A DNA stretch of 64,000 nt from Deltaproteobacteria bacterium (GTDB taxonomy: Bacteria; Desulfobacterota; GWC2-55-46), in assembly GCA_016219115.1 (NCBI GenBank), contig JACRCH010000016.1:22294-86293 (forward strand). The letters run 5' to 3'. This document shows, piece after piece, positions 9,860 to 62,470 of the stretch. Every line of letters begins with the position of its first letter. Position 1 is the first letter of the stretch. The notes beneath the pieces are model-generated. The model had not been told where the DNA came from, ran no database searches, and saw only the letters and a list, made by a program, of their open reading frames with translations. The translations under genes and the position numbers were made by a program.

Positions 9860-10065
9860 TTCCTTCTGGTTGAATGGGTGTACCACTCCGCAATCCCGTC
9901 GCTTTAGCGGCGGGTCAAGGCTGGCAAATATATATGATTTTTCCCTACCATCAAAATTCTCTGTCATTCATGGCGGAGAATTTTGATTAAGCGTTGCTTG
10001 CCGCGTATATAAAAACAGATCTCCCTTTGGGTACCCCGCTGGCAAGGCTTGCGGGGTGGTTCGTG
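9860..10065 (+). repeat. about 200-bp MITE-like intergenic element (family R3) ending in an R1 hairpin
   Basis: The sequence GTTGAATGGGTGTACCACTCCGCAATCCCGTCGCTTTAGCGGCGGGTCAAGGCTGGCAAAT...CATGGCGGAGAATTTTGATTAAGCG...GCCGCGTATATAAAAACAGAT is about 90% identical to 39692-39898 and, as an inverted partial copy, to 34095-34215. Confidence 0.75.
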
Positions 10066-10129
10066 TCCTTTCAGGGTTACTCTTATAAAGTTTTAAAAGT
10101 CCGGGGCTTCAGGAACGCTTCCTCCACGG

Positions 10130-11337: not shown

Positions 11338-11580
11338 TAACTTGGAATTCCCTGTAGCTTGCCCTTGTAAAACCCTCCCCCTTGATGGGGGAGGGGAGGG
11401 GTGAAAATAATCTTTCAGCCTTCGGAATTTCACCCTCCCCGCTTCCCGTTGCATCGGAAGAGCGCAACGGGGGCCCAGCCCTCCCATCAAGGGAGGGGGT
11501 ACTGGCGTACGGCGGATCGAGAACAACCTCTTTTTGTTCGTTTGATACCCCGAAGCTTGCCGCGGGGTGGTTCATTGCGA
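11338..11580. repeat. composite intergenic repeat (R2 G-rich palindromes plus R1 hairpin-GGTTCAT)
   Basis: AATTCCCTGTAGCTTGCCC...CCCTCCCCCTTGATGGGGGAGGGGAGGGGTGAAAA...TTTCACCCTCCCCGCTTCCCGTTGCATCGGAAGAGCGCAACGGG is almost identical to 33418-33600 and 43151-43330. Confidence 0.7.
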
Positions 11581-28310: not shown

Positions 28311-29165
28311 TCACGGTTTGGAAGTGACGACCCTTCCCCAGAGGTCTTTCGTCCCCCAAATACCCGAGCGCAGCGATTCGAGCAGTATTATCTGGCTGTG
28401 GTCCACGAAGAGGTTCACCTCCGGGCCATAGTTTTTTATGTACCAGCCGAAGACCTCCGGGTCGGCGGCCTCGAACATCGTCTTCTCAAGCCCCAATTCC
28501 TTGACAAAGGCCGTTATGATGTCTGTCCTCCATGAGCGGACCTGCTCGGTTATCCCTTCGGACTCGATCATTATCATATAGGCGCCGGCGTCAAGGTGCT
28601 TTTTCGCCTGCTCGACGGCCCAGCCCGGGTCGCTCGTACCCTCGGCCTCCAACTCCGCGACGGCGCTTGCTCCGCCGGAGCCGAATTGCACCCCGACCTC
28701 GGCCTTTACCTCGAGGCCCGCTTTGCGCGCCCTCTTCGTCAGGCGGACAAGGTCGTCCGCGGGGACCGTGATGAAGCCCTTTGATATCTCTATTATGTCG
28801 AAGCCGATGTTTTTGCACTCAAGGATGTATCTTTCCACGGCGTCTTTGCCGAGCGTGAGGACATGTTCGATGTAGCCGCCGGTGTCGGCCTTGACATCGT
28901 ATCTGTGGCAGAGGTCGATGAGTTCCATGACGGCCTTTTTCGGCATGAGGCTGAAGGACCCTCCGGCGAACTTCAGGATGTCGATGTATTGGCCCATCGT
29001 CTCAAGGATGTCTTCGAGGTAGCGCTTGCCCATCGGGGTGTAGTAGGGGCCGCGTATCTCGGTGACGCCGCGCTTGCGGGGTTTACCCTCCCGCTCGTTT
29101 AAAGGGAGAAAGGAGAAGGCCCTTTCCGTCGCGTTGCCCTTCGCCCTTTTTTTCTCGTCGGCCAT
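28311..29165 (-). CDS. phosphosulfolactate synthase (ComA) family protein
   Basis: GVTEIRGPYY...YIDILKFAGGSFSL...GFDIIEISKGFITVP...AGLEVKAEVGVQFG parallels the ComA/(2R)-phospho-3-sulfolactate synthase fold. It runs block by block with the ComA pattern G.T...DKG...YID.VKFGWGTS...GF..VEISDG. Confidence 0.65.
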   Translation of the reverse strand: MADEKKRAKGNATERAFSFLPLNEREGKPRKRGVTEIRGPYYTPMGKRYLEDILETMGQYIDILKFAGGSFSLMPKKAVMELIDLCHRYDVKADTGGYIEHVLTLGKDAVERYILECKNIGFDIIEISKGFITVPADDLVRLTKRARKAGLEVKAEVGVQFGSGGASAVAELEAEGTSDPGWAVEQAKKHLDAGAYMIMIESEGITEQVRSWRTDIITAFVKELGLEKTMFEAADPEVFGWYIKNYGPEVNLFVDHSQIILLESLRSGIWGTKDLWGRVVTSKP

Positions 29166-29227: not shown

Positions 29228-29275
29228 GCGGTTTTAATCACAAAATTCCATGTAGCTTGCTCCGGGGTGGTTCAT
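29228..29275. repeat. short leader (TTTTAATCACAAAATTCC) plus R1 hairpin unit
   Basis: The same 18-nt leader precedes the repeats at 30737, 33418 and 43151. Confidence 0.6.
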
Positions 29276-30642
29276 GGCCGGGCCGCCTTTGAGAGCGGCT
29301 CCATCAGTTCCGCCGCGGTGATCCCCTCGATATTTTTCACCCGCCCGATGATGTCGGCCTGAAGCCTGGCGTCGATAAAAGGCCCGGTGAGCCTTATAAA
29401 CTTCTCCTCGACCCGTTCCCAGCCCATGGGGCTGGTGCGGAAGCCCTCGTAGCCTGTCTTCTCTCTTGTAAGGGTCCGCCCGTCCTTAAGCCTTACCGTG
29501 AGGCCGCAGGCGTGTCTTTCGGGAAAGAGCCGGGTAAGCTTCTCACTCGGGCGGACAATGACTTTTTTGAGAAGCCGCTGCACGTCGTCTCTTATTATCC
29601 TCTCGGGGGCGTACTCTTCGGGCATCACCTTGCCGTCAAGAAGCGCGACGGCCACCAGGAACTTAAGGCTGTGGTCGGCCTCTTCCTTCGTCCTGACCCT
29701 TGTCTTGTCGCCCTCAACGCCGCCGCCTATGATATCATAGGCGGCCTGAAAGATATCTATCTCGACGGAATCGACATCACGGGCCGAAAAACAGTGCTCT
29801 GCCTGAAGCTCGAGCGCGCCTTCAATCGCGGACTGCGAGTGTATCTCGGCGTTGTACTTCTTGAGTATCGTCCATGTCACCCGCTCAAGGTTCTCGTTCG
29901 ACCAGTCGATGACGAACTTCCCGGAGATGGATTCCATAAAGCCTTTGTTCCCCTCGAAGACCTCTTTCGGCCCCGTTACTCCCCTCATGGCGAGAAAAGC
30001 GGCGTTAGAGCAGCAGAAGGCGGCGTTCGGGTACGCCAGCCCCTTCCAGTGGCTGAGTTCCCCGGTGCGGGTCACCCTGAGCGCGTTGAAGGCCGTGCCT
30101 GAGATGGCGACGGCGTTTGTGGTCTGTTCGCCGTTTAAGCCCAATGCCTTTGAGACCCCGGCGGCCAGAGCGAAGGAGCCCTGAGTAGTGTGGTCAAAAC
30201 CCTTTGAGCGCACGGGGGCGACGTCACTTAGCCTGCATTGGACCTGGTAAGCCACGGCCAGCGCCGTCAGGAGGTCTTTCCCGCTTGCCCCTTTGTACTC
30301 GGCGGCGGAGAGCACAGCCCCGAGGTTGTCGCTCGGGTGGCAGGTCTCTCCCGGGGCCATGTAGCTGTCGTTAAAGTCGAGGTAGCGGACAAGGGCGCTG
30401 TTGTAGAAGGCCGCCTGAGAGGGCGAGGTCTTGCCGCCGCCTATGAGCGTAGAGAGGGGGTTGCCGCCGAACTCTTCTATCTGGGCTCTTATCATCCGCA
30501 CGGGCGGTTCGTTTCGCGCTCCGACGGCGCACCCCAGCGAGTCAAGCAGACGGAGCTTCAGCTGGACCAGTGCCTCCCTGGAGATATCCTCGTAGGAGGC
30601 CGATACGACGAAGTCCGCAAGTCTTTGAGCGTCGGTCATCAC
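29272..30642 (-). CDS. MmgE/PrpD family protein (2-methylcitrate dehydratase-like)
   Basis: The N-terminus (LADFVVSASYEDISREALVQLKLRLLDSLGCAVGA) is the MmgE/PrpD signature. 456 aa. Confidence 0.8.
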   Translation of the reverse strand: MMTDAQRLADFVVSASYEDISREALVQLKLRLLDSLGCAVGARNEPPVRMIRAQIEEFGGNPLSTLIGGGKTSPSQAAFYNSALVRYLDFNDSYMAPGETCHPSDNLGAVLSAAEYKGASGKDLLTALAVAYQVQCRLSDVAPVRSKGFDHTTQGSFALAAGVSKALGLNGEQTTNAVAISGTAFNALRVTRTGELSHWKGLAYPNAAFCCSNAAFLAMRGVTGPKEVFEGNKGFMESISGKFVIDWSNENLERVTWTILKKYNAEIHSQSAIEGALELQAEHCFSARDVDSVEIDIFQAAYDIIGGGVEGDKTRVRTKEEADHSLKFLVAVALLDGKVMPEEYAPERIIRDDVQRLLKKVIVRPSEKLTRLFPERHACGLTVRLKDGRTLTREKTGYEGFRTSPMGWERVEEKFIRLTGPFIDARLQADIIGRVKNIEGITAAELMEPLSKAARP

Positions 30643-30736: not shown

Positions 30737-30860
30737 GCGTTTTAATCACAAAATTCCCTCTAGCTTGCCAGAGGGTTTCCTTGTAAAAACCCTCCCCCTC
30801 TATGGGGGAGGGGAGGTTTAAAGAGATACCCCGCGGCTTGGCTGGCAGGGAGATTCAATC
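30737..30860. repeat. composite intergenic repeat (leader + R2 + degenerate R1)
   Basis: TTTTAATCACAAAATTCCCTCTAGCTTGCCAGAGGG...CCCTCCCCCTCTATGGGGGAGGGGAGG...GATACCCCGCGG. Confidence 0.65.
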
Positions 30861-31008: not shown

Positions 31009-31983
31009 ATGAGCAAGGGTCCCGTATCACAGTTTATTGAAAGGCATTATCTCCATTTCAATTCGGCGGCGCTCGTTGACGCGGCCAGGGCGTACGAGGC
31101 GCATCTGGTCAAGGGAGGCAAGATGATGGTGACGCTCGCGGGCGCCATGAGCACTGCCGAACTCGGCAAATCCCTGGCCGAGATGATACGCCAGGGCAAG
31201 GTAGACATAATCACCTGCACGGGGGCGAACCTCGAAGAGGACGTCTTCAACCTCGTGGCGCATACGCACTACAAGAGGATCCCCAATTACAGGGACTTGA
31301 CCCCCGGGGAGGAATGGGAACTCCTGCAGAAGGGTTTTAACAGGGTCACCGACACCTGCATCCCCGAAGGCGAGGCGATAAGGAGGATCGAGCACCATAT
31401 CTACAAGCTCTGGCAGGAAGCCAACGACAAGGGTGAGGAGTACCTGCCGCACCAGTTCTTCTACGCGTTACTCCGCAGCGGTGTCCTTCAGCAGTACTAC
31501 GAGATTGACACAAAGGACAGCTGGCTTCTGGCGGCCTCTGAAAGGGACCTGCCGATAATAGTGCCGGGCTGGGAGGACTCCACGCTCGGCAACATCTTCG
31601 CCTCATACTGCATAACCGGGGAGCTCAAGCAGTCCACCGTCAGGTCGGGAATAGGCTACATGACGTTCCTGGCTGACTGGTACACGAAGAACAGCAAGGG
31701 CGCCGGAATAGGCTTCTTTCAGATAGGCGGAGGCATAGCCGGGGACTTCCCGATATGCGTCGTTCCGATGCTCCAGCAGGACCTGAAGAAAAAGGAGACC
31801 CCCTTCTGGGCGTACTTCTGCCAGATATCGGACTCCACCACGAGCTACGGGTCGTACTCCGGGGCCGTGCCGAACGAGAAGATAACATGGGGCAAACTCT
31901 CGGCCGAGACCCCGAGGTTCATAGTCGAGTCAGACGCTACGATAGTCGCCCCGCTCATCTTCGCGTGGATATTGGGCTGGTAA
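31009..31983 (+). CDS. deoxyhypusine synthase-like (DHS-like) NAD-binding protein
   Basis: MVTLAGAMSTAELGKSLAEMIRQGKVDIITCTGANLEEDVF matches the DHS-family pattern (TSNLISSG...VDVIVTTAGGIEED). The length of 324 aa is typical of bacterial DHS-like proteins. Confidence 0.75.
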   Translation: MSKGPVSQFIERHYLHFNSAALVDAARAYEAHLVKGGKMMVTLAGAMSTAELGKSLAEMIRQGKVDIITCTGANLEEDVFNLVAHTHYKRIPNYRDLTPGEEWELLQKGFNRVTDTCIPEGEAIRRIEHHIYKLWQEANDKGEEYLPHQFFYALLRSGVLQQYYEIDTKDSWLLAASERDLPIIVPGWEDSTLGNIFASYCITGELKQSTVRSGIGYMTFLADWYTKNSKGAGIGFFQIGGGIAGDFPICVVPMLQQDLKKKETPFWAYFCQISDSTTSYGSYSGAVPNEKITWGKLSAETPRFIVESDATIVAPLIFAWILGW

Positions 31984-33417: not shown

Positions 33418-33624
33418 AAATCACAAAATTCCCTGTAGTTTTCTACAGGGTTTACTTGTAAAATCCTCCCCCTCGATGGGGGAGGGAAGGGTGGGGGTGA
33501 AAACAGGTTTTCACCCTCCCCGCTTCCCGTTGCATCGGAAGAGCGCAACGGGAGCCCAGCCCTCGCAATCGAGGGAGGGCTGGGTTTAAGGAGATACCCC
33601 GGAGAAAAGCTCCGGGGTGGTTCA
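33418..33624. repeat. composite intergenic repeat (leader + R2 palindromes + R1 hairpin)
   Basis: Near-identical to 11338-11580 and 43151-43362. Confidence 0.75.
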
Positions 33625-39691: not shown

Positions 39692-39898
39692 TTCCTCCGG
39701 GTTGAATGGGTGTGCCACTCCGCAATCCCGTCGCTTTAGCGGCGGGTCAAGGCTGGCAAATGCAAATGATCTTCCATACCATCAAAATTCTACGTCATTT
39801 ATGGCGGAGAATTTTAATTAAGCGCGGCTTGCCGCGTATATAAAAACAGATTTTCCAACGGAAACCCCGCTAGCCTTGCTAGCGGGGTGGTTCATAGC
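39692..39898 (+). repeat. R3 MITE-like element copy ending in an R1 hairpin
   Basis: About 90% identical to 9860-10065. Confidence 0.75.
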
Positions 39899-39996
39899 AT
39901 TAAAACATCCTATCTTTAACATCGTATGACGGGATACGAGGTCTTCGTCTTTTTTCAGCCCTTCTGAGGTCTTTTCTAAAGCAAAGGGGGAAAGCC

Positions 39997-41145
39997 ATGA
40001 AGTCAGGGTCAGGGCCGTTCAAAGGTTTCCCGGTAGAAAGAGAAGAGAAGAAAGCCGAGAACGATTTTTTCAAGCTCCTTGAACTGAAAGGCATATCGAG
40101 GAGAAGTTTTTTAAAGTACTGCGCCTCCACGGCCGCCCTTTTAGGTCTATCCGGCCTCCATGCGCCCATGATAGCCGAAGCCATCGAGAAGATGGCAAAA
40201 CGCCCGTCCGTAGTATGGCTCTGCTTCATGGAATGCCTCGGCTGCACCGAGTCCTTCGCCAACGCCACATACCCCGAGATAGACAAACTCATACTCGAGA
40301 TGATAAGCCTCGAGTACCACGAGGCCCTGATGGCCGCCGCCGGAGAGCGGGCCCATGAGAACCTCTGGAACGCCGTCAAGGAAGGCGGATACCTCTGCAT
40401 CGTCGAAGGCGCGGTGGCCACGAAGATCCCGAGCGCCATGACCGTAGGCGGCATGACCTCTATCGAGATAATGGAGAAGGTCGGCAGGAAGGCCAAAGCC
40501 GTGATAGCCGTAGGCACGTGCGCCACCCACGGGGGCACGCAGGGCGCCTCCCCTAACCCGACCGGGGCCGTGGGGATAGTCGAATTTTTCAAGACGAAGT
40601 CCATCGCTACACCTGTCATCAACCTCACGGGCTGTCCGGTGAACCCCGAAAATATCATCTCTACGGTACTCCATGTGCTGCTCCTCAACAAGCTCCCGGA
40701 GCTCGATGCTTACCAGAGGCCCTTGGAGCTGTACGGCCAGACTATCCACGACAACTGCCCGAGAAGGGCGCACTTCGACGAGGGACGCTTTGTGGAGGTC
40801 CTCGGGAGCAAGGAAGAATCCCTCGGGTACTGTCTCTACAAGGTAGGGTGCAGGGGCCCCCAGACCTACGCAAACTGCCCGAAGGTCCTCTGGAACAACC
40901 GCCAGAACTGGTGCATAGGCGTGGCCCCGTGCATCGGATGTTTTGAGCCGTACTTCTGGGACAGGTTCAGGGACTTCTATAAACCCCTGCCCGATGTGAA
41001 GCTCCCGGGCGTCACCACGAGCGCGGATAAGATAGGCATGGGCATAGCCGCGGCTACGGCCGCAGGGGTCGGGGCGCACCTCATCGGAAAGGCCCTCAAG
41101 GGAAAGAAGAAGGAGGGGGACTCCGAAGGGGAGGAGAAGAAGTAG
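39997..41145 (+). CDS. [NiFe]/[NiFeSe] hydrogenase small subunit with Tat signal peptide
   Basis: A twin-arginine motif (SRRSFLKYCASTAALLGL), the N-terminal Cys cluster (CFMECLGCTES) and further Cys motifs (GTCATHGG, CPVNPE, CPRRAHFDEG, CLYKVGCRGP, CPKVLW, CIGCFEP). Confidence 0.9.
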   Translation: MKSGSGPFKGFPVEREEKKAENDFFKLLELKGISRRSFLKYCASTAALLGLSGLHAPMIAEAIEKMAKRPSVVWLCFMECLGCTESFANATYPEIDKLILEMISLEYHEALMAAAGERAHENLWNAVKEGGYLCIVEGAVATKIPSAMTVGGMTSIEIMEKVGRKAKAVIAVGTCATHGGTQGASPNPTGAVGIVEFFKTKSIATPVINLTGCPVNPENIISTVLHVLLLNKLPELDAYQRPLELYGQTIHDNCPRRAHFDEGRFVEVLGSKEESLGYCLYKVGCRGPQTYANCPKVLWNNRQNWCIGVAPCIGCFEPYFWDRFRDFYKPLPDVKLPGVTTSADKIGMGIAAATAAGVGAHLIGKALKGKKKEGDSEGEEKK

Positions 41146-41206
41146 TAGGTATTTGAAGGCAAGAAGTCCTTTGAACCGGGGATTGCTTGCGCTCGTACCT
41201 TATAAG

Positions 41207-41345
41207 GCGTTTATGAGACACCCCGGAGCTTGGCTACCGGGGTGTCTCATAAAACCTACTCTCCCTTGAGGGGAGGGTGAAATGACCGGATGGTCAAAGA
41301 CTATTTTCACCCCCCTGCCCGCCTTCTTTCAGGGGGAGGGTTATG
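41207..41345. repeat. R1 hairpin plus partial R2 unit inside the hydrogenase operon spacer
   Basis: GACACCCCGGAGCTTGGCTACCGGGGTGTCTCAT followed by CTCCCTTGAGGGGAGGGTGAAA...TTTCACCCCCCTGCC...CAGGGGGAGGG. Confidence 0.6.
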
Positions 41346-41516
41346 TATGGACAAGCTACATGGAATTCCCGGATCGAAGAACCCCGCCATGAATGACGGG
41401 GGTTCTTCACGGTAAGGTGATTGTCATTTTTACAGCCCGCCTTGCCCCGCTTATAAAGCGGCGGGATCGCGGCGGGTACCCGTTCAATATCACATGACAA
41501 AAAGGAGTGTGAGGCG

Positions 41517-43136
41517 ATGGGGCAAAGGATAGTAATAGACCCGATAACGAGGATCGAGGGCCATCTGAGGATAGAGGTCGAGATAGCGGGCGGCAAAGTA
41601 ACAAACGCCTGGAATACGACCACGCTTTTCAGGGGCTACGAGATAATACTGCAGGGCAGGGACCCCAGGGACGCCTGGCACTTCTCCCACAGGATCTGCG
41701 GCATATGCCCCACGTCGCACGGACACACGGCCTCGATGAGTCTCGAGGATTCCTTCAAAGTAAAGCCGCCGGACAACGCGAGGATCATCAGGAACCTGAT
41801 GGAGGCCGCCCAGATAGGATACGACCACATACTCTGGTTCTATATCCTGAACGGCTTCGACTATGTCGATGTGGTCAGCGCCCTGAAGGCCAGGCCGAAA
41901 TCGCCGTCATTGAAGAAAGTCCAGGAGAGGATAAAGGCCTACGTTGACAGCGGGCAGCTCGGATTCCTCGGTAACGCCTACTGGGGCGCCCCCGAATACA
42001 AGCTCCCTCCGGAATTAAACCTCGAGCTTGTGGCGCACTACCTCGAATCGATCAAGGTGAAATCGCTGGCCACCGAAGCCGCGGCGGTATTCGGCGGCAA
42101 GTTCCCTTATGTGATGAGCACCCCTCCGGGAGGCGTGACCTGCGTGCCGACGCTCACGATGATAGCCGACTATCAGGACAAGATGAACAAGGTCAGGGCA
42201 TTCGTGGACGATACGGTCATCCCGGACCTGCTGGCGATAGCGCCGTACTACCTCTATCTTAAGGACTACGGGCCGGGGCACAAAAACTATCTCTCGATGG
42301 GCGTGCTCGACAGTAAGAGTCAGGACCCGTACGAGAGGCTCTTCCCCAGGGGCGCCATATTCTCGGACGCGCTGAAAATAGAGAAGGTGGACCTCCTCAA
42401 GGATATCGAGGAGTATGTCGGCCACAGCTGGTACACGGACCAGAGCGGCGGCGGCAGAAACCCCATGAACGGCGTGACGGAGCCGAAGTTTACCGGGCAG
42501 GAAGGGATAAAGGAGATAGACCACGAAGGCAAGTACGACTGGACAAAGGCCGTAAGGTTCAGGGGCAAGCCCATGGAGGGCGGCCCGCTGGCGCAGATGC
42601 TCACGGCGTACCTTGCCGGCAGGCCCCAGGCCAAAAAGCTCGTCGACGGTCTCCTCTCGGCCGTGGGCGCCCCTGGCAAGCTCAATATACTCCACTCCAT
42701 CCTCGGAAGGGTGGCTGCCAGGGTCTTAAAGCTCAAGATGACACTCGATGAGGTGGACGGCTGGGTCAACGAGCTTGTGGCCAACATCAAGGGCGGCGAC
42801 ATGCGTTTTTACACGCCTTACGAGATACCGGATTCGGCCAGCGGGGTAGCCGGGTGGGACGCCCCGAGGGGCTGCATAACCGACTACAATGTGATAGAGG
42901 GCGGGAAGCTCAAGCTCTGGCAGGCAGTACCGGCGTCGAACTGGAACTTCTCGCCGAGGGACGACAAGGGGGTAAGGGGGCCCGCCGAGGAGGCCCTGAT
43001 AGGAGTGCCGGTCCAGGACCCGAAGAAGCCGCTCGAGGTCTTGCGATTGATACACTCCTTCGACCCCTGAATGGCCTGCGCGGTTCACGTGATTGAACCG
43101 GAGACAAACGAGATACTCAAGTTCAGGGTAAGATGA
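41517..43136 (+). CDS. [NiFeSe] hydrogenase large subunit; selenocysteine encoded by in-frame TGA at 43068-43070
   Basis: The N-terminal Ni-binding motif RICGICPTSHGH is present. The annotated ORF stops at a TGA located exactly where the first Cys of the C-terminal DPCxxCxxH motif should be; read-through gives DP-U-MACAVHV-IEPETNEILKFRVR before the real stop at 43134-43136. A hairpin follows 11 nt later. Confidence 0.8.
43081..43100 (+). promoter_or_regulatory. SECIS-like hairpin downstream of the UGA
   Basis: CGGTTCA-CGTGAT-TGAACCG forms a 7-bp stem with a 6-nt loop, starting 11 nt 3' of the TGA. Confidence 0.5.
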
Positions 43137-43150
43137 CTCCCTGAGTGACT

Positions 43151-43362
43151 TTTAATCACAAAATTCCCTGTAGCTTGCCGCAGGGTTTCCTTGTAAAATC
43201 CTCCCCCTTTATGGTGACGGGGGAGGGGGGGGGTGAAAAAATGTTTTCACCCTCCCCGCTTCCCGTTGTATCGGAAGAGCGCAACGGGAGCCCAGCCCTC
43301 CCATCAAGGGAGGGCTGGGCTTAAGGAGATACCCCGCTGGCAAGGCTAGCGGGGTGGTTCAT
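43151..43362. repeat. composite intergenic repeat (leader + R2 + R1) between the large-subunit and cytochrome b genes
   Basis: TTTTAATCACAAAATTCCCTGTAGCTTGCC...GGGGGAGGGGGGGGTGAAAAAATGTTTTCACCCTCCCCGCTTCCCGTTGTATCGGAAGAGCGCAACGGGAGCCCAGCCCTCCC...GATACCCCGCTGGCAAGGCTAGCGGGGTGGTTCAT. Confidence 0.75.
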
Positions 43363-43411
43363 GGGTAAGGACAAAGGCCGGTAAGCTCCTGACGGCTATA
43401 CCCGAAAGGGG

Positions 43412-44002
43412 GTGCTCACGATGGGAGAACGGTACTTGAGGCATGATTTTTTTGAGAGGGCCGTCCATTGGGTGATGGCCCTCTCGGTAATACTGCTCAT
43501 CCCGAGCGGCCTTGACATCCGCTTTCCGGGCCTCATCCCCTGGGGCTTCGGTACGATGAACTCGGCCCGGTTCATCCACTTCGTCTCGATGTACGCGCTC
43601 ATATTCTCGTGGCTGGCGTACACCATTCATCTCATCGTTGATGAGTTCAAAACGGAGATAATCCGCTGGAGCGACATAAAGGGGCTGCCGGAGATGGTGA
43701 GGCACTATCTCTTCCTCACGGAGAAGCGCCCGGCCTATCCAAAGTACAACCCCTTGCAGAAGCTTGCTTTCAATATCGTATGGGTTATGATACTCATACA
43801 GGCCGCGACCGGTGCCATGCTCTACTGGCCCGCCCTGACCATGGGGATAACGAGCTACTTCGGGGGCCTGATGGCCGTGAGGGTCCTCCATGATTTCATG
43901 ACATATATCTTCATTTCCTTTATAATAATCCACATATACCTTGTATTAAGCTCGGATATAAGAAATCTGTGGGCCATGATCAACGGTTACTCGTACAGAT
44001 GA
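43412..44002 (+). CDS. Ni/Fe-hydrogenase b-type cytochrome subunit (HyaC/HupC-like)
   Basis: 196 aa, four TM helices with conserved His residues (HWVMA, HFVSMY, HDFMTYIFISFIIIHIY). Its position after the large subunit supports the call. Confidence 0.7.
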   Translation: MLTMGERYLRHDFFERAVHWVMALSVILLIPSGLDIRFPGLIPWGFGTMNSARFIHFVSMYALIFSWLAYTIHLIVDEFKTEIIRWSDIKGLPEMVRHYLFLTEKRPAYPKYNPLQKLAFNIVWVMILIQAATGAMLYWPALTMGITSYFGGLMAVRVLHDFMTYIFISFIIIHIYLVLSSDIRNLWAMINGYSYR

Positions 44003-44174
44003 TCTTTTGAGGAACGGGGTCCGGCCTTTTGGCAGCGTCGGAGAAACTATGGACGGATTGCCAAATTGCGAGACTAAAAAAGTCGAGCAATTTGTAAGAT
44101 TTGGACGAATTCATTTCGGCCAAATCGTGGTTGAAAAAGCCAGGGAGGGACTTTTTTAACATCCTGCTAGATAA

Positions 44175-44681
44175 ATGGCTAAAGCGAAGAAGGACAAGAG
44201 ATATCTGGTGCTCGGGGTAGGCAACATCCTCTTAAAAGACGAGGGCCTCGGCGTAAGGGCCATTGAGTACATCCGGGAAAGATACTCGGTCCCGGAATCC
44301 GTCAGCGTCGTCGACGGCGGGACCGGGGGCTTGAACCTTTTATCCCTCATAAGGGACTTCGACCACATAATCATCGTCGACGCCGTAGCCCCGAGGACCA
44401 CTCCCGGCGCTCTCTACAGAATACCCGGCAAGATGCTGCCCAAGAGTCCGCCTCTCATGACCACGGCGCACCAGCTCGGCGTCAGTGACATGCTGGCCAT
44501 AGCGGACCTCGAAGGCTACGACCCGGATGTCGTCGTTATAGGGATGGAACCCAAGGAGATCTCCGTCAGCCTGGAGCTGTCAAGCGTCATAAGGGAGAAG
44601 CTCCCGGAGGTAGCCGAGATGGTGGCTAAAGAGCTTGAGGGGTTCGGGGTCGTCCTGAGGGAGAGAAGCGGGCGTGCATGA
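44175..44681 (+). CDS. hydrogenase maturation endopeptidase (HyaD/HybD family)
   Basis: YLVLGVGNILLKDEGLGVRAIEYI...VVDGGTGGLNLL...IIIVDAV matches the HybD family. Confidence 0.85.
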   Translation: MAKAKKDKRYLVLGVGNILLKDEGLGVRAIEYIRERYSVPESVSVVDGGTGGLNLLSLIRDFDHIIIVDAVAPRTTPGALYRIPGKMLPKSPPLMTTAHQLGVSDMLAIADLEGYDPDVVVIGMEPKEISVSLELSSVIREKLPEVAEMVAKELEGFGVVLRERSGRA

Positions 44682-45015
44682 GATGTCGATCACTATGAGC
44701 ATGATGGAGATAGTCAAGGAGCAGATGATTAAACACGGCGTCAAGGACCTCAAAAGGCTCAAGGTCCGGGTCGGGGAACTGACGGCCGTGGAGCCTGAGG
44801 CCTTGCAGTTCTGTTTCGAGGTATACGTGAAGGGCACGCCTATGGAAGGGGCCGCCCTCGAGATAGAAGAAGCGCCGTTGATGGGAAGGTGCGTTGATTG
44901 CGATGAGGAGTTCCGGATGGAGTACTTCCTGCAAGCATGCCCCAGGTGCGAAGGCGGCGCGGTAACGAAAACAACGGGCCACGAGCTCGACATAGTGTCC
45001 ATGGAGGCGGAGTAA
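44674..45015 (+). CDS. hypA: hydrogenase nickel incorporation protein HypA
   Basis: MHEMSI N-terminus and C-terminal zinc-finger pairs (CVDCDEEF ... CPRCEGG). 113 aa. Confidence 0.85.
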   Translation: MHEMSITMSMMEIVKEQMIKHGVKDLKRLKVRVGELTAVEPEALQFCFEVYVKGTPMEGAALEIEEAPLMGRCVDCDEEFRMEYFLQACPRCEGGAVTKTTGHELDIVSMEAE

Positions 45016-45018
45016 GAT

Positions 45019-45693
45019 ATGCACGACATCCTGATAGAAGAAGGCGTCCTGGCGAAGAACGACGGGATAGCCGGGGAGAACAGGGAGATGCTCCGCGGCA
45101 GGGGGATATACTCCATTAACATGGTAAGCTCGCCGGGCTCGGGTAAGACCTCGATAATAGAAAAGACGGCCGGGCTTCTTGACGGGCTCTTGAGGCTCGC
45201 GGTGATAGAGGGCGACATCGAGACCGACCTCGACGCTGAGAGGATAAGGAGGCACGGCGTCCCGGCAAAGCAGATAACTACGGGGAGGGCATGCCACCTT
45301 GACGCACACCATGTGCACCACGCGCTCCCGTGGCTCTTTGAGCAGGACGGGATAAGGCTTCTTATAATAGAGAATGTCGGCAACATGGTCTGCCCCGCCG
45401 AGTACGACCTCGGCGAAGAGATGAAGGTAGCGGTTATGAGCGTTGCCGAGGGGGACGACAAGCCGCTTAAGTACCCGGCCCTCTTCAGCGCCTCGCAGGC
45501 GCTCATCATAAACAAGACGGACCTCCTGCCCTACACGGACTTCAACATGCACAGGGCGAGGGAGAACGCATTGCGGATAAACCCGGAGTTAAAGGTTTTT
45601 GAGACCTCGTGCACGAAGGGGACGGGGCTTCAGGAGTGGTGCGGGTTTCTTCTCAGTTCCGCCGGAGCGGCGGCAAAGGCGCCGGTGAAATAA
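45019..45693 (+). CDS. hypB: hydrogenase nickel incorporation GTPase HypB
   Basis: P-loop (SSPGSGKTS), a CH motif (GRACHLDAHHV), ENVGNMVCP and NKTDL. Confidence 0.9.
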   Translation: MHDILIEEGVLAKNDGIAGENREMLRGRGIYSINMVSSPGSGKTSIIEKTAGLLDGLLRLAVIEGDIETDLDAERIRRHGVPAKQITTGRACHLDAHHVHHALPWLFEQDGIRLLIIENVGNMVCPAEYDLGEEMKVAVMSVAEGDDKPLKYPALFSASQALIINKTDLLPYTDFNMHRARENALRINPELKVFETSCTKGTGLQEWCGFLLSSAGAAAKAPVK

Positions 45694-45818: not shown

Positions 45819-47114
45819 ATGTGTCTGACCATACCGGCGAAAGTCATAGCGATCGATAATCCGGTGCCGGGCTTTCCGGTAGCGAACATCACCGTCGAGG
45901 ACTCAAAGGGCAGGAAGGAAATAAAATCCCTGTGGCTGCCGGAGCTCAAGGTCGGCGACTGGGTGCTCTATGCCTACGACACGGCGATACGCAAGGTAAG
46001 CGAGGAGGACGCCAGAGAGATACTGGAGCTGCTCGAGCCCAAAAAGCATATCGACATATCCGCTTTGGACACCGGCTTCCTCGAAGTCCTGAAGGGCCAT
46101 TCCACGGGTAATCTCTCAAGGGACGGGATAGTGAGGCTTTTGAAGACCGAAGACCCCTTGGAGATGGAGACCCTCTTTGCCGAGGCCAATACCGTAAGGC
46201 AGGCTTCCTTGAGGGATTTTTTCTGTATCCACGGGATAATGGAGTTCTCGAACCACTGCGCCATGAACTGCTTCTACTGCGGCTTGAGGAGAGACTCCGC
46301 TGACGTGGTTCGCTACAGGATGACCCCGGATGAGATAGTGGGCGCGGTCGAAGACGCCGTCAACAGGCGCGGGTACAAGCTCATAGTGCTGCAGTCAGGC
46401 GATGACTTCCATTATACCGACATCAAGCTCGTGGAGATAATCAGGAGGATAAAAAAGTCCTCCAAGGTCTTTATCTTCATGAGCGTGGGGGAGCGCAGTA
46501 TCGAGTGCTACCGGAGGATGAAGGCTGCCGGGGCCAGCGGCGTGCTCTTCCGCTTCGAGACGTCCAACCGGGAGATCTACAACCTGATACATCCGGGCCA
46601 GTCATATGACCGGAGGATGGAGCTGTTGAAGGGGATGAAAGAGCTCGGTTACTACATAGCCTCAGGTTTTCTCATCGGCCTGCCGGGCCAGACGGCGGAA
46701 GACATCGCCGATGACATACTCGCCATGAAGGCGCTGAAAGTCAACATGGCCTCCATAGGCCCCTTCATCCCGTGCGCCTCGACTCCCCTGGCGACGCATC
46801 AGGCCGGGAGCGCGGAAATGACCCTGAAGGTGACCGCTGTCCTGAGGCTGCTGATGCCAAGGGCGAAGATCCCGGTCACGACAGCCCTTGAAACCATTGA
46901 GAGCGAAGAGGGCAGGAGGCTCGGGCTCTCCTCCGGGGCGAATTCGCTCATGTTCAACCTCACGCCCGAGAGATACAGGGGCGACTACAGGATATATCCG
47001 AACAAGTACCACGGCAAGGAGGAGGTCTGGGAGAAGTACGGTCTCTTTAACGAAGAACTCAGCTACAGGATGCTCGAGAAGAAGATGTTCGAGGCCTTCG
47101 AGGTGCTGAAATGA
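45819..47114 (+). CDS. HypC-like chaperone domain fused in-frame to a HydE-like radical SAM enzyme
   Basis: N-terminus: MCLTIPAKVIAIDN...KVGDWVLYAYDTAI...EDAREILELLE matches the HypC/HupF signature (MC[LI]..P, KVGD[WY]VL). It continues without a stop into LSRDGIVRLLKTEDPLEMETLF...IMEFSNHCAMNCFYCGLRRDSADVVRYRMTPDEI...IVLQSGDD...GPFIP, matching HydE (CxxxCxYCGLRRDN, VLQSGED). The start is placed at the Met of MCLTIP (coordinate derived from ORF-track residue count, about +/-3 nt). The 70 codons upstream in the track overlap hypB. Confidence 0.65.
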   Translation: MCLTIPAKVIAIDNPVPGFPVANITVEDSKGRKEIKSLWLPELKVGDWVLYAYDTAIRKVSEEDAREILELLEPKKHIDISALDTGFLEVLKGHSTGNLSRDGIVRLLKTEDPLEMETLFAEANTVRQASLRDFFCIHGIMEFSNHCAMNCFYCGLRRDSADVVRYRMTPDEIVGAVEDAVNRRGYKLIVLQSGDDFHYTDIKLVEIIRRIKKSSKVFIFMSVGERSIECYRRMKAAGASGVLFRFETSNREIYNLIHPGQSYDRRMELLKGMKELGYYIASGFLIGLPGQTAEDIADDILAMKALKVNMASIGPFIPCASTPLATHQAGSAEMTLKVTAVLRLLMPRAKIPVTTALETIESEEGRRLGLSSGANSLMFNLTPERYRGDYRIYPNKYHGKEEVWEKYGLFNEELSYRMLEKKMFEAFEVLK

Positions 47115-48502
47115 CAACCGGCGCATGGACGGAGACATTCATAGACGATAGAAGGATCGGCTCGGCGCTCGAGAAGTCCGCAAAGCCCTCGAAAAAAGCT
47201 GTGACGGAACTCCTCGCCAAAGGGCGCTCCCTTGCCGGGCTTACCCCCGAAGAGGCCGCGGTCCTGTTAAACGCCGAAGGTGAAGAGGCAAGGGCCGCGA
47301 TATTCGAGACCGCGACCCGCATCAAGAACGCCATATACGGCGACAGGCTGGTCTTTTTCGCCCCGCTCTACCTGAGCAACTACTGCGTGAACGACTGCGT
47401 TTACTGCGGGTTTCATTCCAGCAACAAGGCCGTCCGCAAAAAACTGACGATGGACGAGATAAGGGGGCAGGTCCGCCTGCTGATAGAGATGGGCCACAAG
47501 AGGCTGCTGCTTGAGGCCGGCGAGGACCCCGTGCACAACCCCATAGACTATCTCCTCGAAGCCGTAGACACTATCTACTCCGTCAAGACCGACAAGGGCG
47601 AGATAAGACGCCTGAACGTAAACATCGCCGCCACGAGCGTGGAGGACTACAGGCTCCTGAAAGCCAGGGGTATCGGCACATATCAGCTCTTCCAGGAGAC
47701 CTACCACAGGGCCACCTTTGAACGGCTGCACAGGGGGCCAAAGGGCGACTACCGCAGACAGCTCTATGCCATGGACAAGGCCTTCGAGGCCGGTATTGAC
47801 GATGTCGGCCTCGGTGTCCTCTTCGGCCTCCATGACTGGCGGTTCGAGGCGCTCGGGCTCGTCTCGCACGCCGAGTACCTCTCGAAGGCATTCGGAGTGG
47901 GCCCCCATACCATCTCGGTTCCGAGGTTCAGGCCCGCCGCGTCGGTGGAGCTTACGCCCGGATTTCCAGTAAGCGACGAAGACTTCCTGAAGCTCATAGC
48001 GGTCTTGAGGATAGCGGTCCCTTATACGGGGATGATAATAACTACACGGGAGAGGCCTGAGATAAGGGAGGCCGCCTTCAGGATAGGCATAAGCCAGACG
48101 AGCGCCGCGTCTTCTACTACCCCCGGCGGCTTCGGCCAGAAGGGAGAGCAGGGGGTGGAGCAGTTCGCGCTCTCGGACAAAAGGACCCTCGATGAGATAG
48201 CGATAAGCGTCATGAAGCAGGGCTACACCCCGAGCTTCTGCACCGCCTGCTACCGGAAAAAGAGGACAGGCGGTACATTCATGGACCTGGCCAGGCCCGG
48301 CGACATACAAGAGTTCTGCACTCCCAACAGCATCCTGACGCTCTTTGAATATATCGAAGACATCGCCTCTCCGGAGAGCAAGGCCCTCGGCATGGAGATA
48401 ATAAGGAAATCGCTTGAAAGCATCGAAAACCCCACTATAAAAGAAGAGACGGAAAAAAAACTTGAGAGGATCAGGCGGGGCGAAAGGGACCTTTATTTCT
48501 GA
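47111..48502 (+). CDS. HydG-like radical SAM tyrosine lyase (ThiH/HydG family with C-terminal CX2CX22C auxiliary-cluster motif)
   Basis: A radical SAM motif (CVNDCVYCGFHS). The C-terminus has SFCTACYRKKRTGGTFMDLARPGDIQEFC, which is exactly C-x2-C-x22-C as in HydG; this is absent from ThiH. The ATG overlaps the stop of the upstream gene. Confidence 0.75.
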   Translation: MTTGAWTETFIDDRRIGSALEKSAKPSKKAVTELLAKGRSLAGLTPEEAAVLLNAEGEEARAAIFETATRIKNAIYGDRLVFFAPLYLSNYCVNDCVYCGFHSSNKAVRKKLTMDEIRGQVRLLIEMGHKRLLLEAGEDPVHNPIDYLLEAVDTIYSVKTDKGEIRRLNVNIAATSVEDYRLLKARGIGTYQLFQETYHRATFERLHRGPKGDYRRQLYAMDKAFEAGIDDVGLGVLFGLHDWRFEALGLVSHAEYLSKAFGVGPHTISVPRFRPAASVELTPGFPVSDEDFLKLIAVLRIAVPYTGMIITTRERPEIREAAFRIGISQTSAASSTTPGGFGQKGEQGVEQFALSDKRTLDEIAISVMKQGYTPSFCTACYRKKRTGGTFMDLARPGDIQEFCTPNSILTLFEYIEDIASPESKALGMEIIRKSLESIENPTIKEETEKKLERIRRGERDLYF

Positions 48503-55023: not shown

Positions 55024-56928
55024 TTGATGGCACAGAAAGCTTCATGGCGTGAAATTAATATTGTATTAGCAATACTAGTTATAATCACCGTCTTCACCGC
55101 GCTCCCTGCCAATGCCGACAGCACCTTAAACCCTGAGGTACTAAAAGAGTCCGCTACCCTGCCATCAGTCAAAAGTCCCATCGGGGCTGCCCACCGCAAG
55201 GCCCTCAAGGCATATCAGACTACAAAAGACCCGAAGCATTCTATCAAGATACTGGAAGACGCAGGGGTAGCCGGACTTGCCGGCAAGGACCCTGAAACAG
55301 CCTCTCTTACAAAGGGTCAATATGCCGCCGTGCTCAACGACTACGCCTATTTTCTTTATCTTGCAGGGCAGAAGACAAGGGCTCTTCCCATACTTAACAG
55401 GGTCATAGAGGTCGACCCCGAAAGGGTGGCCGCATATCTAAACCGGGGCGATATCTATGGGGAGGTATACGGCAGGACAAAAGACATCCGCGACAAGGAA
55501 CTGTATGTAGCCGACTACAGGGCCTACAACGAGCGGATGATAAGGGATAAGAAGTCCTTCCTCGTCCCAGAGCGTGTAGAGCGGGGGCTTTATGCCCTTG
55601 AGATAAAACAACCGCCCGTGGAAAAGGAAAAGAGGCGGGAGTTGGAGGAGAAGCTCTACGAGGCCGCCAAGATGAACAACATCGAAGAGGTTGTAAGGCT
55701 TCTGAAGGAAGGAGCAGACCCTAACGCAGGAGCCTATGTTGCGCCCCTGCGTTACTCTGACAACGATGTGCTTCTCTACCAGAGCAAAAGCTACGAAACA
55801 CCGCTGGACTTTGCGGCCTTACAGAACAATATCGAGATGGCGAAGTACCTTATCTATAACGGCGCCACGGTGCATATGAGGTCTCTACAACGCAACACCC
55901 CCCTGCACTATGCCGCGTGTGGGGGAGACCTTGAAATGGTTAAGTACCTCTTGGGGAAAGGCGCCATATACGACTACCCGAACAACAACTCCTTTATGCC
56001 TGTCGGTTGGGCCATCGGCTGCAAGGACGGAGAGCATGAGGAGGAAGTCTTCGACTTCCTCCTGAGCATAAATAACGGAAGGTATATAAACGGGGCGACC
56101 TTAGACGAGATAATAAAGAATGCCGGGGGTCTTAAGGACAGGGAGAGGGGCCTGCGGGTAGTGCGCGACATTTTCACAAGGTTCAGGAAGCGCATTTCAA
56201 CAAAGGCCCTTGGTGAGAGTTATGTAAAAGCCGTGATGACTGACAACAGGAAGCTTGTCGATTTTTACAGAAAAAATAAAGTCAAGATAGATACTGACGA
56301 GTACATAGGGGCCCTTATAAGGGGGAAGAAGTTCGATGAGGCGAAGAAGGTTATTGAGTCGGCTAAGAAGCTCGGGAGAGAGACTTTTTCGAGTATAAGC
56401 TTAATACCTGTCTACAAAACAGATTGGAAGTGCGAGCGTGGGCAGGAGAGGTATGAAGGTAATGAGGTGGAGGAGTTATTGCTGCCTGCCATAAAGGCAT
56501 ACAATCTGAGTAAGCCTACGGAGTCTAACAACCATGACCTTATCTTTTCCCGGTTTTTAGACCAGCTCAGCTCTTATTCTTTCAAATATCCACTATGTTT
56601 TAATAAGGCGAGGACAATTAAAGTTGTCCGGTTGATGCTGGAAAATGGACTTAATCCAGCATTCCTCAATTCGGGATTCCATTATATTGTCGCACTCAAT
56701 GATCTTGAACTGGCAAAAGAGGTGCTTGAAAAAATAAGTGTTGATGAAAAAATTTGTTATTATTTATTTGCTAATGCAAGGTCGATGGAGATGGTCAGGT
56801 TTCTGGAGTCTCATGGATTCAGCCTTTCCAATGAAGAGTACAAGAGACTTGTCGAACATATGGAGAAAAAAACTTTCCCAGATACAGACCGGAGCGTTAT
56901 CGTGCATTATAAAACAAAAATCAAATAG
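55024..56928 (+). CDS. exported ankyrin-repeat / TPR-repeat protein
   Basis: A signal peptide (ILVIITVFTALPANA), TPR-like helices, then at least 3 ankyrin repeats (TPLDFAALQNNIEMAKYLIYNGATVH..RNTPLHYAACGGDLEMVKYLLGKGA). Confidence 0.75.
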   Translation: MMAQKASWREINIVLAILVIITVFTALPANADSTLNPEVLKESATLPSVKSPIGAAHRKALKAYQTTKDPKHSIKILEDAGVAGLAGKDPETASLTKGQYAAVLNDYAYFLYLAGQKTRALPILNRVIEVDPERVAAYLNRGDIYGEVYGRTKDIRDKELYVADYRAYNERMIRDKKSFLVPERVERGLYALEIKQPPVEKEKRRELEEKLYEAAKMNNIEEVVRLLKEGADPNAGAYVAPLRYSDNDVLLYQSKSYETPLDFAALQNNIEMAKYLIYNGATVHMRSLQRNTPLHYAACGGDLEMVKYLLGKGAIYDYPNNNSFMPVGWAIGCKDGEHEEEVFDFLLSINNGRYINGATLDEIIKNAGGLKDRERGLRVVRDIFTRFRKRISTKALGESYVKAVMTDNRKLVDFYRKNKVKIDTDEYIGALIRGKKFDEAKKVIESAKKLGRETFSSISLIPVYKTDWKCERGQERYEGNEVEELLLPAIKAYNLSKPTESNNHDLIFSRFLDQLSSYSFKYPLCFNKARTIKVVRLMLENGLNPAFLNSGFHYIVALNDLELAKEVLEKISVDEKICYYLFANARSMEMVRFLESHGFSLSNEEYKRLVEHMEKKTFPDTDRSVIVHYKTKIK

Positions 56929-56939
56929 GGAGGTAGAAC

Positions 56940-59900: not shown

Positions 59901-60089
59901 GATAACCAAACCGAGATATTTAAGGCTGCGGATGGAAGTCAGCTTCTGAGTACTCAAGTCGACCAGCTTGTCCAGGCCATGGCGTCGTTCTGCTCCAGCA
60001 ACGGTATAAGCTGGGAGCAGGCGATACAAACCAACCCACAAGATGTCCAGCAGATACTCGCTCAGAATTGGAGTCAACCTCAACCATAA
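56940..60089 (+). CDS. large RTX-family calcium-binding repeat protein (type I secretion substrate)
   Basis: Tandem GGxGxDxUx nonapeptides (GGDGNDTLSGLDGNDTIYGNAGVDYLNGGNGDDLIAGGAGNDFLYGETGNDTLYGGDGND...). Two HCBP-related modules (ITVENWYGDN...ERFDFANGTSL; LNVQNWYSG...IFKAADGSQL). An N-terminal acidic DxDGDG domain. No N-terminal signal peptide, consistent with a C-terminal secretion signal. Confidence 0.85.
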   Translation: MAVFNTTQQETDFKNLLREVYLRNEAQPNEWYVFTSNAGTGTSGWSFGPAQWDVRNNPSVAIPILDKMKDSNGVKLFSDTDISKLRGSENITASDLERYNAILNANQVLINAEFEQHLNNDVALIENLVSELSASGNQQTADYITSNKLAQVMLVDYNNQFKISGVDSNGTVNGANDGKMMKFLKGLQVDDYGGGKMDTGPSFDVTDIMKFLTGTKWAYNYENDGQGPRDIYRRLTNIRDTVGSFLTDAERQLINTFLGIQRLGLLGDAIHDAWLNYFNTAKTVIVTPSSHCPLIFDLDGDGVETTNVKAGYYFDHDGDGFAQQTGWAGQDDGVLFRDLNGNGLIDNGAELFGNETILTSGAKAANGFLALAELDNNADGKIDSNDTAWGELKIWQDNNNDGYTTVDEMLTLDALGIQSINTGYTTSAMVDTQGNEHRQTGSFTKTDGTTGTVSDVWFRTDNAFAMAKEWLDVPQDIAALPDLKGGGTVYDLHQAMVRDTSGALKTLVQSFIAEADPIIRGNLMEQILIKWTGSDDIDPNSRGQWIDARNLSALEKLFNNQFVDINGNTDPNTMNAILLRQAFQGVVEKNYAQLIAQTHIQNLVNMITYSWDATASDLKGDLSAVQTEIQTQINTNYDTGKQFLSEFSRILKGLNAEGITDFTNFRDYFASQSEDLAWTIDAAGKYLISGTAGNDAFNAADINSALTGGDGNDTLSGLDGNDTIYGNAGVDYLNGGNGDDLIAGGAGNDFLYGETGNDTLYGGDGNDNIDGGDGSDFLYGGAGDDYIAGGAGSDTYLFNLGDGQDTISEGDWPGIDIDVLRFGSGITSADLLIGRDMNNLYNLTVGISGTSDKITVENWYGDNAYKLERFDFANGTSLTGAEVEAMAVIRGTAGDDWIYGSPENEKFEGGLGNDYISGDGGNDTYLFQRGGGQDTITDYDTIVGNTDVVQFDVNPLDLIFSQSGNNLSLSISGSSDSLNVQNWYSGIDNQTEIFKAADGSQLLSTQVDQLVQAMASFCSSNGISWEQAIQTNPQDVQQILAQNWSQPQP

Positions 60090-60235
60090 CGAGTTTTTGT
60101 TATATGTTTTTGTGTAGCTTCCAGTTAATTTCACTCATCCCTATCAATACACATGGGGAGAGGATTGAAACACCACATTGAAGAATAGTATCGTTATTAA
60201 AGGTCGTATTTTATGGAAAGCGCGCAAGAGGTTAT

Positions 60236-62392: not shown

Positions 62393-62470
62393 ATGGTTGC
62401 ATTTGAATATTCTGAATTCTATTATTCGATTTTTTCGCCCTCTTGATTACGGCTTATTAGAGGTGTTGCT

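Follow-up and report, generated by a model that had tools for sequence, protein, structure and literature searches.

In the HysAB-type [NiFeSe] hydrogenases of Desulfomicrobium baculatum and Desulfovibrio (Nitratidesulfovibrio) vulgaris (structures 1cc1 and 2wpn), selenocysteine (Sec) replaces the first cysteine of the C-terminal DPCxxCxxH motif of the large subunit. These enzymes are periplasmic, are exported by the twin-arginine translocation (TAT) pathway, carry a cysteine at the medial cluster of the small subunit, and have a C-terminal peptide and a dedicated endopeptidase. To our knowledge they lack a cytochrome b subunit, the electron acceptor being periplasmic cytochrome c3. Group 4 [NiFeSe] hydrogenases have been found in silico; they were hidden by truncation at UGA and were recovered by read-through, with hairpins resembling a selenocysteine insertion sequence (SECIS) (Front Microbiol 2026, PMC13582414). 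A stretch of 64,000 nucleotides from a Deltaproteobacteria bacterium (contig JACRCH010000016.1, positions 22,294 to 86,293; the whole stretch is referred to as the window) carries a hydrogenase operon in which the large-subunit gene is interrupted by an in-frame TGA. Based on its sequence, UGA 43068-43070 is very probably a Sec codon in the catalytic subunit of a periplasmic, membrane-anchored and cytochrome b-linked group 1 [NiFeSe] uptake hydrogenase. The recoding is of a known kind and its mechanism is that of the textbooks; the enzyme does not belong to the classical HysAB family, and its misannotation is systematic. This assignment is based on the comparison with relatives, in which the TGA, the tail behind it and a covarying hairpin are conserved, and not on folding energy.

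The operon shares with HysAB the position of Sec in the motif, the medial-cluster cysteine, TAT export, periplasmic location, the C-terminal peptide and the dedicated endopeptidase, as well as a SECIS hairpin at the same distance from the UGA with a loop starting CGUG (seen in the HysA gene of locus L058, discussed below). Unlike HysAB, it includes a gene for a b-type cytochrome, and its small subunit has a putative C-terminal anchor. As with the group 4 enzymes (PMC13582414), a Sec hydrogenase is masked by truncation in public annotation; the difference is that the present enzyme is a group 1 uptake hydrogenase with Sec at its canonical C-terminal site.

By sequence, the nearest solved structures are those of the standard periplasmic [NiFe] hydrogenases HynAB of D. 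fructosovorans, D. vulgaris Miyazaki F and D. gigas (1frf, 1h2a and 2frv), which we take to be HydDB group 1b 'prototypical' enzymes. The window large subunit scored 466 bits with 1frf_L, 456 bits with 1h2a_L and 426 bits with the D. gigas protein, figures which are only indicative for the HydDB subgroup; E. coli Hyd-1, likewise compared through the Protein Data Bank, gave approximately 377 bits. The HynAB C-terminal extension (VIEPETNEILKF[KR]V) is almost identical to that of the window, and the C-terminal domain of the window small subunit is also closest to HynAB. In contrast to the window, HynAB has cysteine at the motif position and proline at the medial cluster, and we know of no cytochrome b gene in its operon. 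HydABC of Wolinella succinogenes and Hya of E. coli are membrane-bound, cytochrome b-linked three-subunit uptake hydrogenases. Enzymes of this type carry cysteine and not Sec; they share with the window the succession of genes for small subunit, large subunit, cytochrome b and endopeptidase, and their small subunit has a TAT signal and a hydrophobic anchor at the C-terminus.

The large-subunit open reading frame (ORF) of the window, 41517-43070 on the forward strand, comprises 517 codons (41517-43067) and stops at TGA 43068-43070, directly behind ...LRLIHSFDP. Translation and alignment to solved [NiFe] structures place this TGA in the slot of the first cysteine of DPCxxCxxH, opposite the first cysteine of DPCIACGVH, which is the first (Ni-terminal) ligand position. 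RICGICPTSH, the metal-binding motif near the N-terminus (RxCGxCxxxH type), and the C-terminal DP-U-MACAVH both align with the corresponding motifs of 1frf_L and 1h2a_L, the UGA replacing the first cysteine of the latter. When the read-through protein was searched against Pfam (U being entered as C in this and the other searches), a match to PF00374 of 519.5 bits was obtained over residues 39-524 (cutoff 25.8). By family, the gene codes for the large subunit of a group 1 [NiFe] hydrogenase.

Reading through the TGA in frame yields U-MACAVH. The six codons behind the TGA (43071-43088, forward strand) complete UxxCxxH, in which the cysteine would be the second C-terminal metal ligand and the histidine (43086-43088) would mark the protease cleavage site; they are kept in all relatives, whether Sec-type or Cys-type. 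A 15-residue C-terminal extension, VIEPETNEILKFRVR, follows at 43089-43133 and is expected to be removed after nickel insertion. The frame is closed by a second TGA at 43134-43136, the true stop of the gene according to sequence, translation and relatives. The peptide behind the first TGA (HVIEPETNEILKFRV) is nearly identical to the precursor tail of D. fructosovorans (HVIEPETNEILKFKV), which makes a chance reading frame very unlikely. A preliminary description of this locus had already proposed that the ORF ends where the first cysteine of DPCxxCxxH belongs, and that read-through gives DP-U-MACAVH and a short peptide of the kind cut off by a maturation protease. The same coordinates were recovered here for the TGA, the tail was found to run for 15 residues to the second TGA, and both its likeness to the D. 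fructosovorans tail and an endopeptidase gene in the operon agree with the proposed type of peptide. The expectation that gene callers would truncate the gene was correct, since all 55 Sec-type protein clusters described below end at 'DP', but the truncation removes both C-terminal metal ligands (Sec and the cysteine of UxxC) and not, as had been stated, a single one.

To examine relatives, a collection of 5.8 billion proteins was searched with the read-through protein and the C-termini of the top 120 matches were read. The 15 clusters nearest to the window protein (77-91% identity) all end exactly at ...HS[FY]DP; their lengths are 485-519 residues, and 517-519 in every case but one. A further 40 clusters at 53-59% identity, with names including Gaiellales, Thermoleophilia and Candidatus Aquicultor, likewise end at DP. 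Cys-type relatives, 66 in number and with names including Nitrospirota, Desulfobulbaceae and Deltaproteobacteria, run on as DPC[IL]AC[AT]VH followed by a 15-residue tail of the same type. The best relative in the genome collection was a Deltaproteobacteria metagenome-assembled genome (MAG) with 77-81% identity. DNA of homologues was taken from loci of the genome collection (L001-L080) and from a DNA-pattern scan of metagenome contigs, which resulted in 115 distinct Sec-type 45-mers. In this DNA the genes ending at DP show a TGA at the same position as the window (for example in L001, L154, L201/L202 and L203, and in all 115 Sec-type sequences), then in-frame [MI]-[AG]-C-x-V-H and the conserved tail, while the other genes have TGC or TGT. 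The stop after the in-frame tail is at the same position in relatives from independent assemblies. The tail behind the histidine measures 15 residues in 55 and 20 residues in 43 of the 115 sequences (98 together), a constancy unlike what a non-coding continuation would give. In every relative, NCBI annotation and gene callers treat the TGA as a stop.

A hairpin lies inside the coding sequence at 43081-43100 on the forward strand, with the 5' arm CGGTTCA (43081-43087), the loop CGTGAT (43088-43093) and the 3' arm TGAACCG (43094-43100). It is separated from the TGA by a 10-nucleotide spacer and its stem begins at the 11th base. In bacterial SECIS elements of the E. coli fdhF type the stem was reportedly placed by Liu et al. 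in 1998 about 11 nucleotides after the UGA. As in the SECIS of E. coli fdhF, the hairpin follows the UGA directly within the coding sequence, and a G is found at the beginning of its apical loop; it differs in its short, perfect stem of 7 bp and its 6-nucleotide loop, and neither a bulged U nor an extended lower stem is evident. Based on its fold, on the fixed register of pairing and compensatory variants among homologues, and on frozen synonymous sites, 43081-43100 (apical loop CGUGAU, G at loop position 2) is supported as a predicted bacterial SECIS.

The register of pairing separates the two types of gene. At least six of the seven pairs, in exactly the register of the window, are formed in 91 of 115 Sec-type sequences and in 0 of 67 Cys-type homologues, while a perfect hairpin of at least 6 bp occurs within the first 45 nucleotides in 112/115 and 18/67, respectively. 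Mean folding energy of the downstream regions separates Sec-type from Cys-type weakly (p = 0.018, confounded by guanine-plus-cytosine content), and register-specific pair counts were used instead. Compensatory arms among the homologues include CGGTTCA/TGAACCG, GCGTTCA/TGAACGC, CCGTTCA/TGAACGG and GGGTTCA/TGAACCC, and also GGTGCA/TGCACC, CCGTCC/GGACGG, GTGTGC/GCACAC and TCCACC/GGTGGA. Several of these swaps alter the encoded residues on both arms jointly (Ala-Val...Glu-Pro to Gly-Val...Glu-Arg), which indicates that RNA pairing is preserved at the expense of the protein sequence. When the window structure was imposed on an ungapped alignment of all 115 distinct Sec-type sequences, 83.7% of cells were paired and 55 cells, at three pairs, were changed on both sides. 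Covariation was 0.180 as against 0.053 in shuffles, and none of 500 shuffles reached the observed value; with the 3' arm shifted by one, two or three columns, pairing fell to 8-58%. The 7-bp stem-loop (CGGTTCA-CGTGAT-TGAACCG) that the preliminary description placed 11 nucleotides past the TGA was thus borne out, and its interpretation as a bacterial SECIS is supported by the fixed register and the covariation.

Within the clade of the window (L154, L001, L201/L202 and L203) the stretch GCG GTT CAC GTG ATT GAA CCG is frozen, while codons on both sides of it vary synonymously. Its sole change, GAA to GAG in L201, retains a G-U pair. The G at loop position 2 (alignment column 22) is present in at least 90% of the 115 sequences and agrees with the bacterial SECIS consensus, which has a G where the apical loop begins (PMC13582414). 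The G at loop position 2 also opens a conserved valine codon, and coding constraint therefore contributes to its conservation.

A second line of evidence comes from the small subunit, encoded at 39997-41145 on the forward strand. The product matches PF01058, PF14720 and TIGR00391 (343 bits) and carries a TAT signal (SRRSFLK; TIGR01409 match) and a C-terminal hydrophobic stretch, which was read directly off the translation and is thus a putative anchor. The cysteine of its NWCIG motif aligns opposite the proline of NWPV in the small subunits of D. gigas and D. fructosovorans. In standard [NiFe] enzymes, proline at this medial-cluster position leaves a [3Fe-4S] cluster, while the D. baculatum [NiFeSe] enzyme has a cysteine there and three [4Fe-4S] clusters; a P238C substitution in the D. 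fructosovorans enzyme is said to convert the medial cluster. Among the fetched loci in which both genes were readable, cysteine occupies the position in 17 of 22 Sec-type loci and proline in 19 of 19 Cys-type loci (Fisher p = 3e-7, uncorrected for relatedness). The exchange of proline for cysteine appears to be an independent [NiFeSe] hallmark which tracks Sec in the relatives.

Several points weigh against the Sec assignment. The fold energy of the hairpin is ordinary (-9.8 kcal/mol; z = -0.59 over 40 nucleotides and z = -2.07 over 26 nucleotides), and single-sequence folding energy was given no weight as support. The homologues are mutually related, and the Fisher and shuffle figures overstate their independence. 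The pattern used to search the metagenomes left two of the seven 5'-arm positions free (N) and prescribed the other five (GT and CA); it put no constraint on the 3' arm. Rfam gave no match to the hairpin, either over the whole window at the gathering threshold or over 42950-43250 at E up to 10, where chance microRNA and small RNA matches but no SECIS hit were obtained. Rfam models of bacterial SECIS elements are lineage- and gene-specific, so the missing match carries little weight. No tRNA-Sec, selA, selB or selD was found within the 64-kb window, in which ARAGORN detected no tRNA and Pfam was run on ORFs mostly of at least 110 amino acids. In the fetched loci of relatives ARAGORN detected 13 ordinary tRNAs and no tRNA-Sec.

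As nothing in the window identifies the tRNA that reads the codon, the UGA could be recoded via the same hairpin by a tRNA of the tRNA-ReC type inserting cysteine or another residue, which would make this an ordinary [NiFe] enzyme. tRNA-ReC-like tRNAs with UCA or GCA anticodons mediate SECIS-dependent recoding of UGA and are reported from genomes with recoded hydrogenases (PMC13582414). We consider this explanation very unlikely here: Sec at this exact position is experimentally established in [NiFeSe] hydrogenases (structures 1cc1 and 2wpn), the co-varying cysteine for proline in the small subunit parallels the known [NiFeSe] enzymes, and a plain TGC or TGT gives cysteine more cheaply, as it does in the 66 Cys-type relatives. 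A genome-wide reassignment of UGA to sense, as in genetic codes 4 or 25, would need no SECIS, and the in-frame TGA itself, but nothing more, speaks for it. TGA is the commonest stop in the window, ending 18 of 33 confidently identified genes at positions which fit the family models, that of the present gene at 43134-43136 included. No other convincing case emerged when the window was scanned for in-frame TGAs flanked on either side by long or conserved coding sequence and close to a hairpin. The recoding is thus local and context-dependent and the code is not reassigned; the probability left to a reassignment is negligible.

The uniform treatment of the TGA as a stop by gene callers and NCBI annotation, together with the fact that no Sec machinery was found in the window, could be taken to mean that the TGA is a true stop, that the product is that of a truncated pseudogene or a subunit without the two C-terminal metal ligands, and that the downstream frame and hairpin are remnants. 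However, lineages which are only about 55% identical in protein have retained the TGA, an intact tail of 21 codons up to a stop that is itself conserved, and a hairpin that is both frozen and covarying, a pattern which cannot be reconciled with decay. The maturation operon, too, is complete and intact, and it is established for [NiFe] enzymes that a large subunit without its C-terminal ligands cannot bind the Ni-Fe centre; a true stop was accordingly judged highly improbable. Although a single base separates TGA from TGC or TGT, an error of sequencing or assembly is scarcely credible, because the TGA recurs in the independent assemblies L154, L001, L201/L202 and L203, because the 15 close protein clusters agree with it, and because the window has the hairpin that accompanies only TGA-type genes.

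In the preferred reading, in which UGA 43068-43070 is decoded as Sec, the hairpin at 43081-43100 with its loop CGUGAU would recruit SelB-GTP-Sec-tRNA(Sec) to the UGA in the A-site, and Sec would be inserted in place of termination. The ribosome would then read another 21 codons before terminating at the real stop, TGA 43134-43136, which is without such a hairpin. Sec and the cysteine three residues on would serve as the two C-terminal ligands of the Ni-Fe centre. After nickel insertion dependent on HypA and HypB, the endopeptidase encoded at 44175-44681 would probably cut behind the histidine (43086-43088) and remove the 15-residue tail. The mature large subunit would be exported together with the small subunit, which bears the TAT signal, and the heterodimer would dock on the cytochrome b subunit. 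Because a cysteine replaces the medial-cluster proline, the small subunit probably contains three [4Fe-4S] clusters, and electrons would pass from it to the b-type cytochrome and, presumably, to the quinone pool.

Membership of the HysAB family was considered and rejected, as all three Hys-specific NCBIfam models scored below their curated cutoffs: NF045518 for the large subunit (392.5 vs 780), NF045520 for the small subunit (262.3 vs 470) and NF045519 for the protease (103.9 vs 190). A true HysA, identified in locus L058 by its motif DP-U-LGCAVH, scored 902 on NF045518. It is only 38% identical to the window large subunit and shows a gap of about 24 residues where the latter has residues ~133-156; its hairpin is found at the same position with a CGUGC loop. 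The [NiFeSe] assignment of the preliminary description stands for the type of active site, with an in-frame UGA and a frame running to a conserved stop; the enzyme is not a member of the Desulfomicrobium/Desulfovibrio HysAB family, with which that description had suggested an alignment. Membership in NF033181 ('NiFeSe_hydrog', nickel-dependent hydrogenase large subunit; cutoff 600) was likewise rejected, with a score of 514 for the window; five other Sec-type relatives scored 471-515, while the model passes HysA (717) and the Cys-type sequences L003 (627) and L006 (621). No curated NCBIfam model reached its cutoff for the Sec-type lineage (six members tested), which explains the uniform truncation in annotation. 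Locus L058 belongs to the MAG Proteobacteria bacterium OH_CBlB_133 and carries, besides hysA at ~6190-7710 (forward strand), a Cys-type group 1 [NiFe] large-subunit gene at 10001-11572, approximately 4 kb apart.

The group 1 [NiFeSe] enzymes have been described as the Hys type of sulfate reducers, forming a single clade with all putative and established [NiFeSe] enzymes sampled (PMC4730141), and as variants within HydDB group 1a (PMC5037454); [NiFeSe] enzymes are elsewhere listed in groups 1 and 3 (PMC13582414). A more tentative proposal, which we regard as possible but rather doubtful, is that the window enzyme belongs to a large, essentially undescribed radiation of cytochrome b-linked group 1 [NiFeSe] hydrogenases, separate from the HysAB clade, in which Sec and the medial-cluster cysteine evolved together. 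The proposed radiation spans Desulfobacterota-like MAGs, Thermoleophilia and other Actinomycetota, and Coriobacteriia. Its members are truncated at 'DP' in public protein sets and, among the six tested, reached no NCBIfam cutoff, so that the group would be invisible to standard surveys. In a rough neighbour-joining tree of 121 sequences, midpoint-rooted and with neither outgroup nor support values, the 66 Cys-type sequences form one clade and the Sec-type sequences several lineages around it. Such a Sec-type grade around a single clade of the Cys/Pro type (Nitrospirota and others) could mean that Sec is the older state there.

Large subunits of group 1 of the Coriobacteriia type (L040 and L043; metagenome loci L084, L137, L140, L158, L182 and L192) also carry the TGA, so the use of Sec at the motif position extends to that lineage. 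Their tail differs (...VVDTKTGK...SSPMGVM) and the register of the hairpin is shifted (GTCCAC-GTG-GTGGAC). In L104 (Ga0265797_10018552, 6796-6825) the TGA is followed by IGCYVHVR and a stop after 2 tail residues, with no good hairpin, and this copy may be decaying.

Downstream of the large-subunit gene, and on the same strand, the operon continues with a b-type cytochrome membrane subunit at 43412-44002 (PF01292, 100 bits; TIGR02125, 97 bits, which is below the cutoff of 121.5), in the gene order of L201 and L203, and with a maturation endopeptidase of the HyaD/HybD type at 44175-44681 (PF01750, 97 bits; TIGR00072, 140 bits, cutoff 47). These are followed by genes for two nickel-insertion accessory proteins: hypA at 44674-45015, with a GTG start giving an MHE N-terminus and with HypA annotated at the equivalent place in L201 and L203, and hypB at 45019-45693 (TIGR00073 HypB, 257 bits). 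The gene order of the hydrogenase operon is shared with L001, L201 and L203. The marks of the membrane-bound, cytochrome b-linked uptake type are all present: the small subunit has a TAT signal, the large-subunit gene is followed by one for a cytochrome b, and the operon has an endopeptidase of its own. A scan of 39700-44200 for promoters and terminators gave nothing above shuffle expectation.

A dispersed intergenic repeat of about 150-250 nucleotides was also found, with palindromic sub-units CCCTCCCTTGAKGGGAGGG; GGGTGAAA...TTTTCACCCCCC; and CAAGCTACAKGGAATT. Copies at 41168-41390 (forward strand) and 43145-43411 (reverse strand) flank the large-subunit gene in inverted orientation with approximately 67% identity, and further copies lie near 11346-11500, 29244-29345, 30752-30767 and 33427-33519. 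Each motif occurs 6-7 times in place of the 0.03-0.65 expected. The upstream copy accounts for the unusual gap of 370 nucleotides between the two subunit genes, relatives being without such a gap (9 nucleotides in L001). The repeat looks like an element of the repetitive extragenic palindrome (REP) or miniature inverted-repeat transposable element (MITE) type.

Just behind hypA and hypB, at 45819-47114 (forward strand), a HypC domain (MCLTIP..., PF01455) is fused in frame to a radical S-adenosylmethionine (SAM) enzyme of the HydE type (TIGR03956, 277 bits, above cutoff), and next to it HydG is encoded at 47111-48502 (forward strand; TIGR03955, 571 bits). No hypD, hypE, hypF, HydF or [FeFe] hydrogenase was identified in the window; close relatives of the hydrogenase have a normal hypF-hypC-hypD-hypE set instead. 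The fusion is present in more than 100 protein clusters of about 430 residues (Deltaproteobacteria, Planctomycetes/Kuenenia and Falkowbacteria), every one of which bears the bare name 'HydE', and the two-gene module of fusion and HydG occurs widely in other phyla. Two contexts were inspected in which the fusion stands alone with the HydG-like gene, and the Kuenenia fusion is located approximately 8 kb from hypA/hypB. A literature search found no paper on a HypC-HydE fusion. As a speculation, the HypC-HydE/HydG pair could be a radical-SAM route supplying diatomic ligands to HypC for [NiFe] sites.

Elsewhere in the window, a type I secretion cluster was identified at 55024-63799 (forward strand), encoding an ankyrin/tetratricopeptide repeat protein, an RTX-repeat protein of 1049 residues, an ATP-binding cassette exporter with a C39 peptidase domain and an HlyD adaptor. 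Two genes unusual in bacteria are a homologue of (2R)-phospho-3-sulfolactate synthase (ComA) at 28311-29165 (reverse strand) and a deoxyhypusine synthase-like gene at 31009-31983 (forward strand).

Correct annotation of the large-subunit gene would give a selenoprotein of 539 residues. As called by standard tools the product is without both C-terminal metal ligands, and would be recorded as a '[NiFe] hydrogenase large subunit' that looks normal and yet is not functional. Because Sec-type clusters are uniformly truncated, Sec-dependent H2 metabolism in sediments, groundwater and vent communities is underestimated when hydrogenase diversity or selenium use is surveyed. High H2-production activity and tolerance of exposure to O2 make [NiFeSe] enzymes sought after. 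A membrane-bound, quinone-linked [NiFeSe] enzyme outside the Hys family would be a useful comparison for the respective contributions of Sec and of an all-[4Fe-4S] relay.

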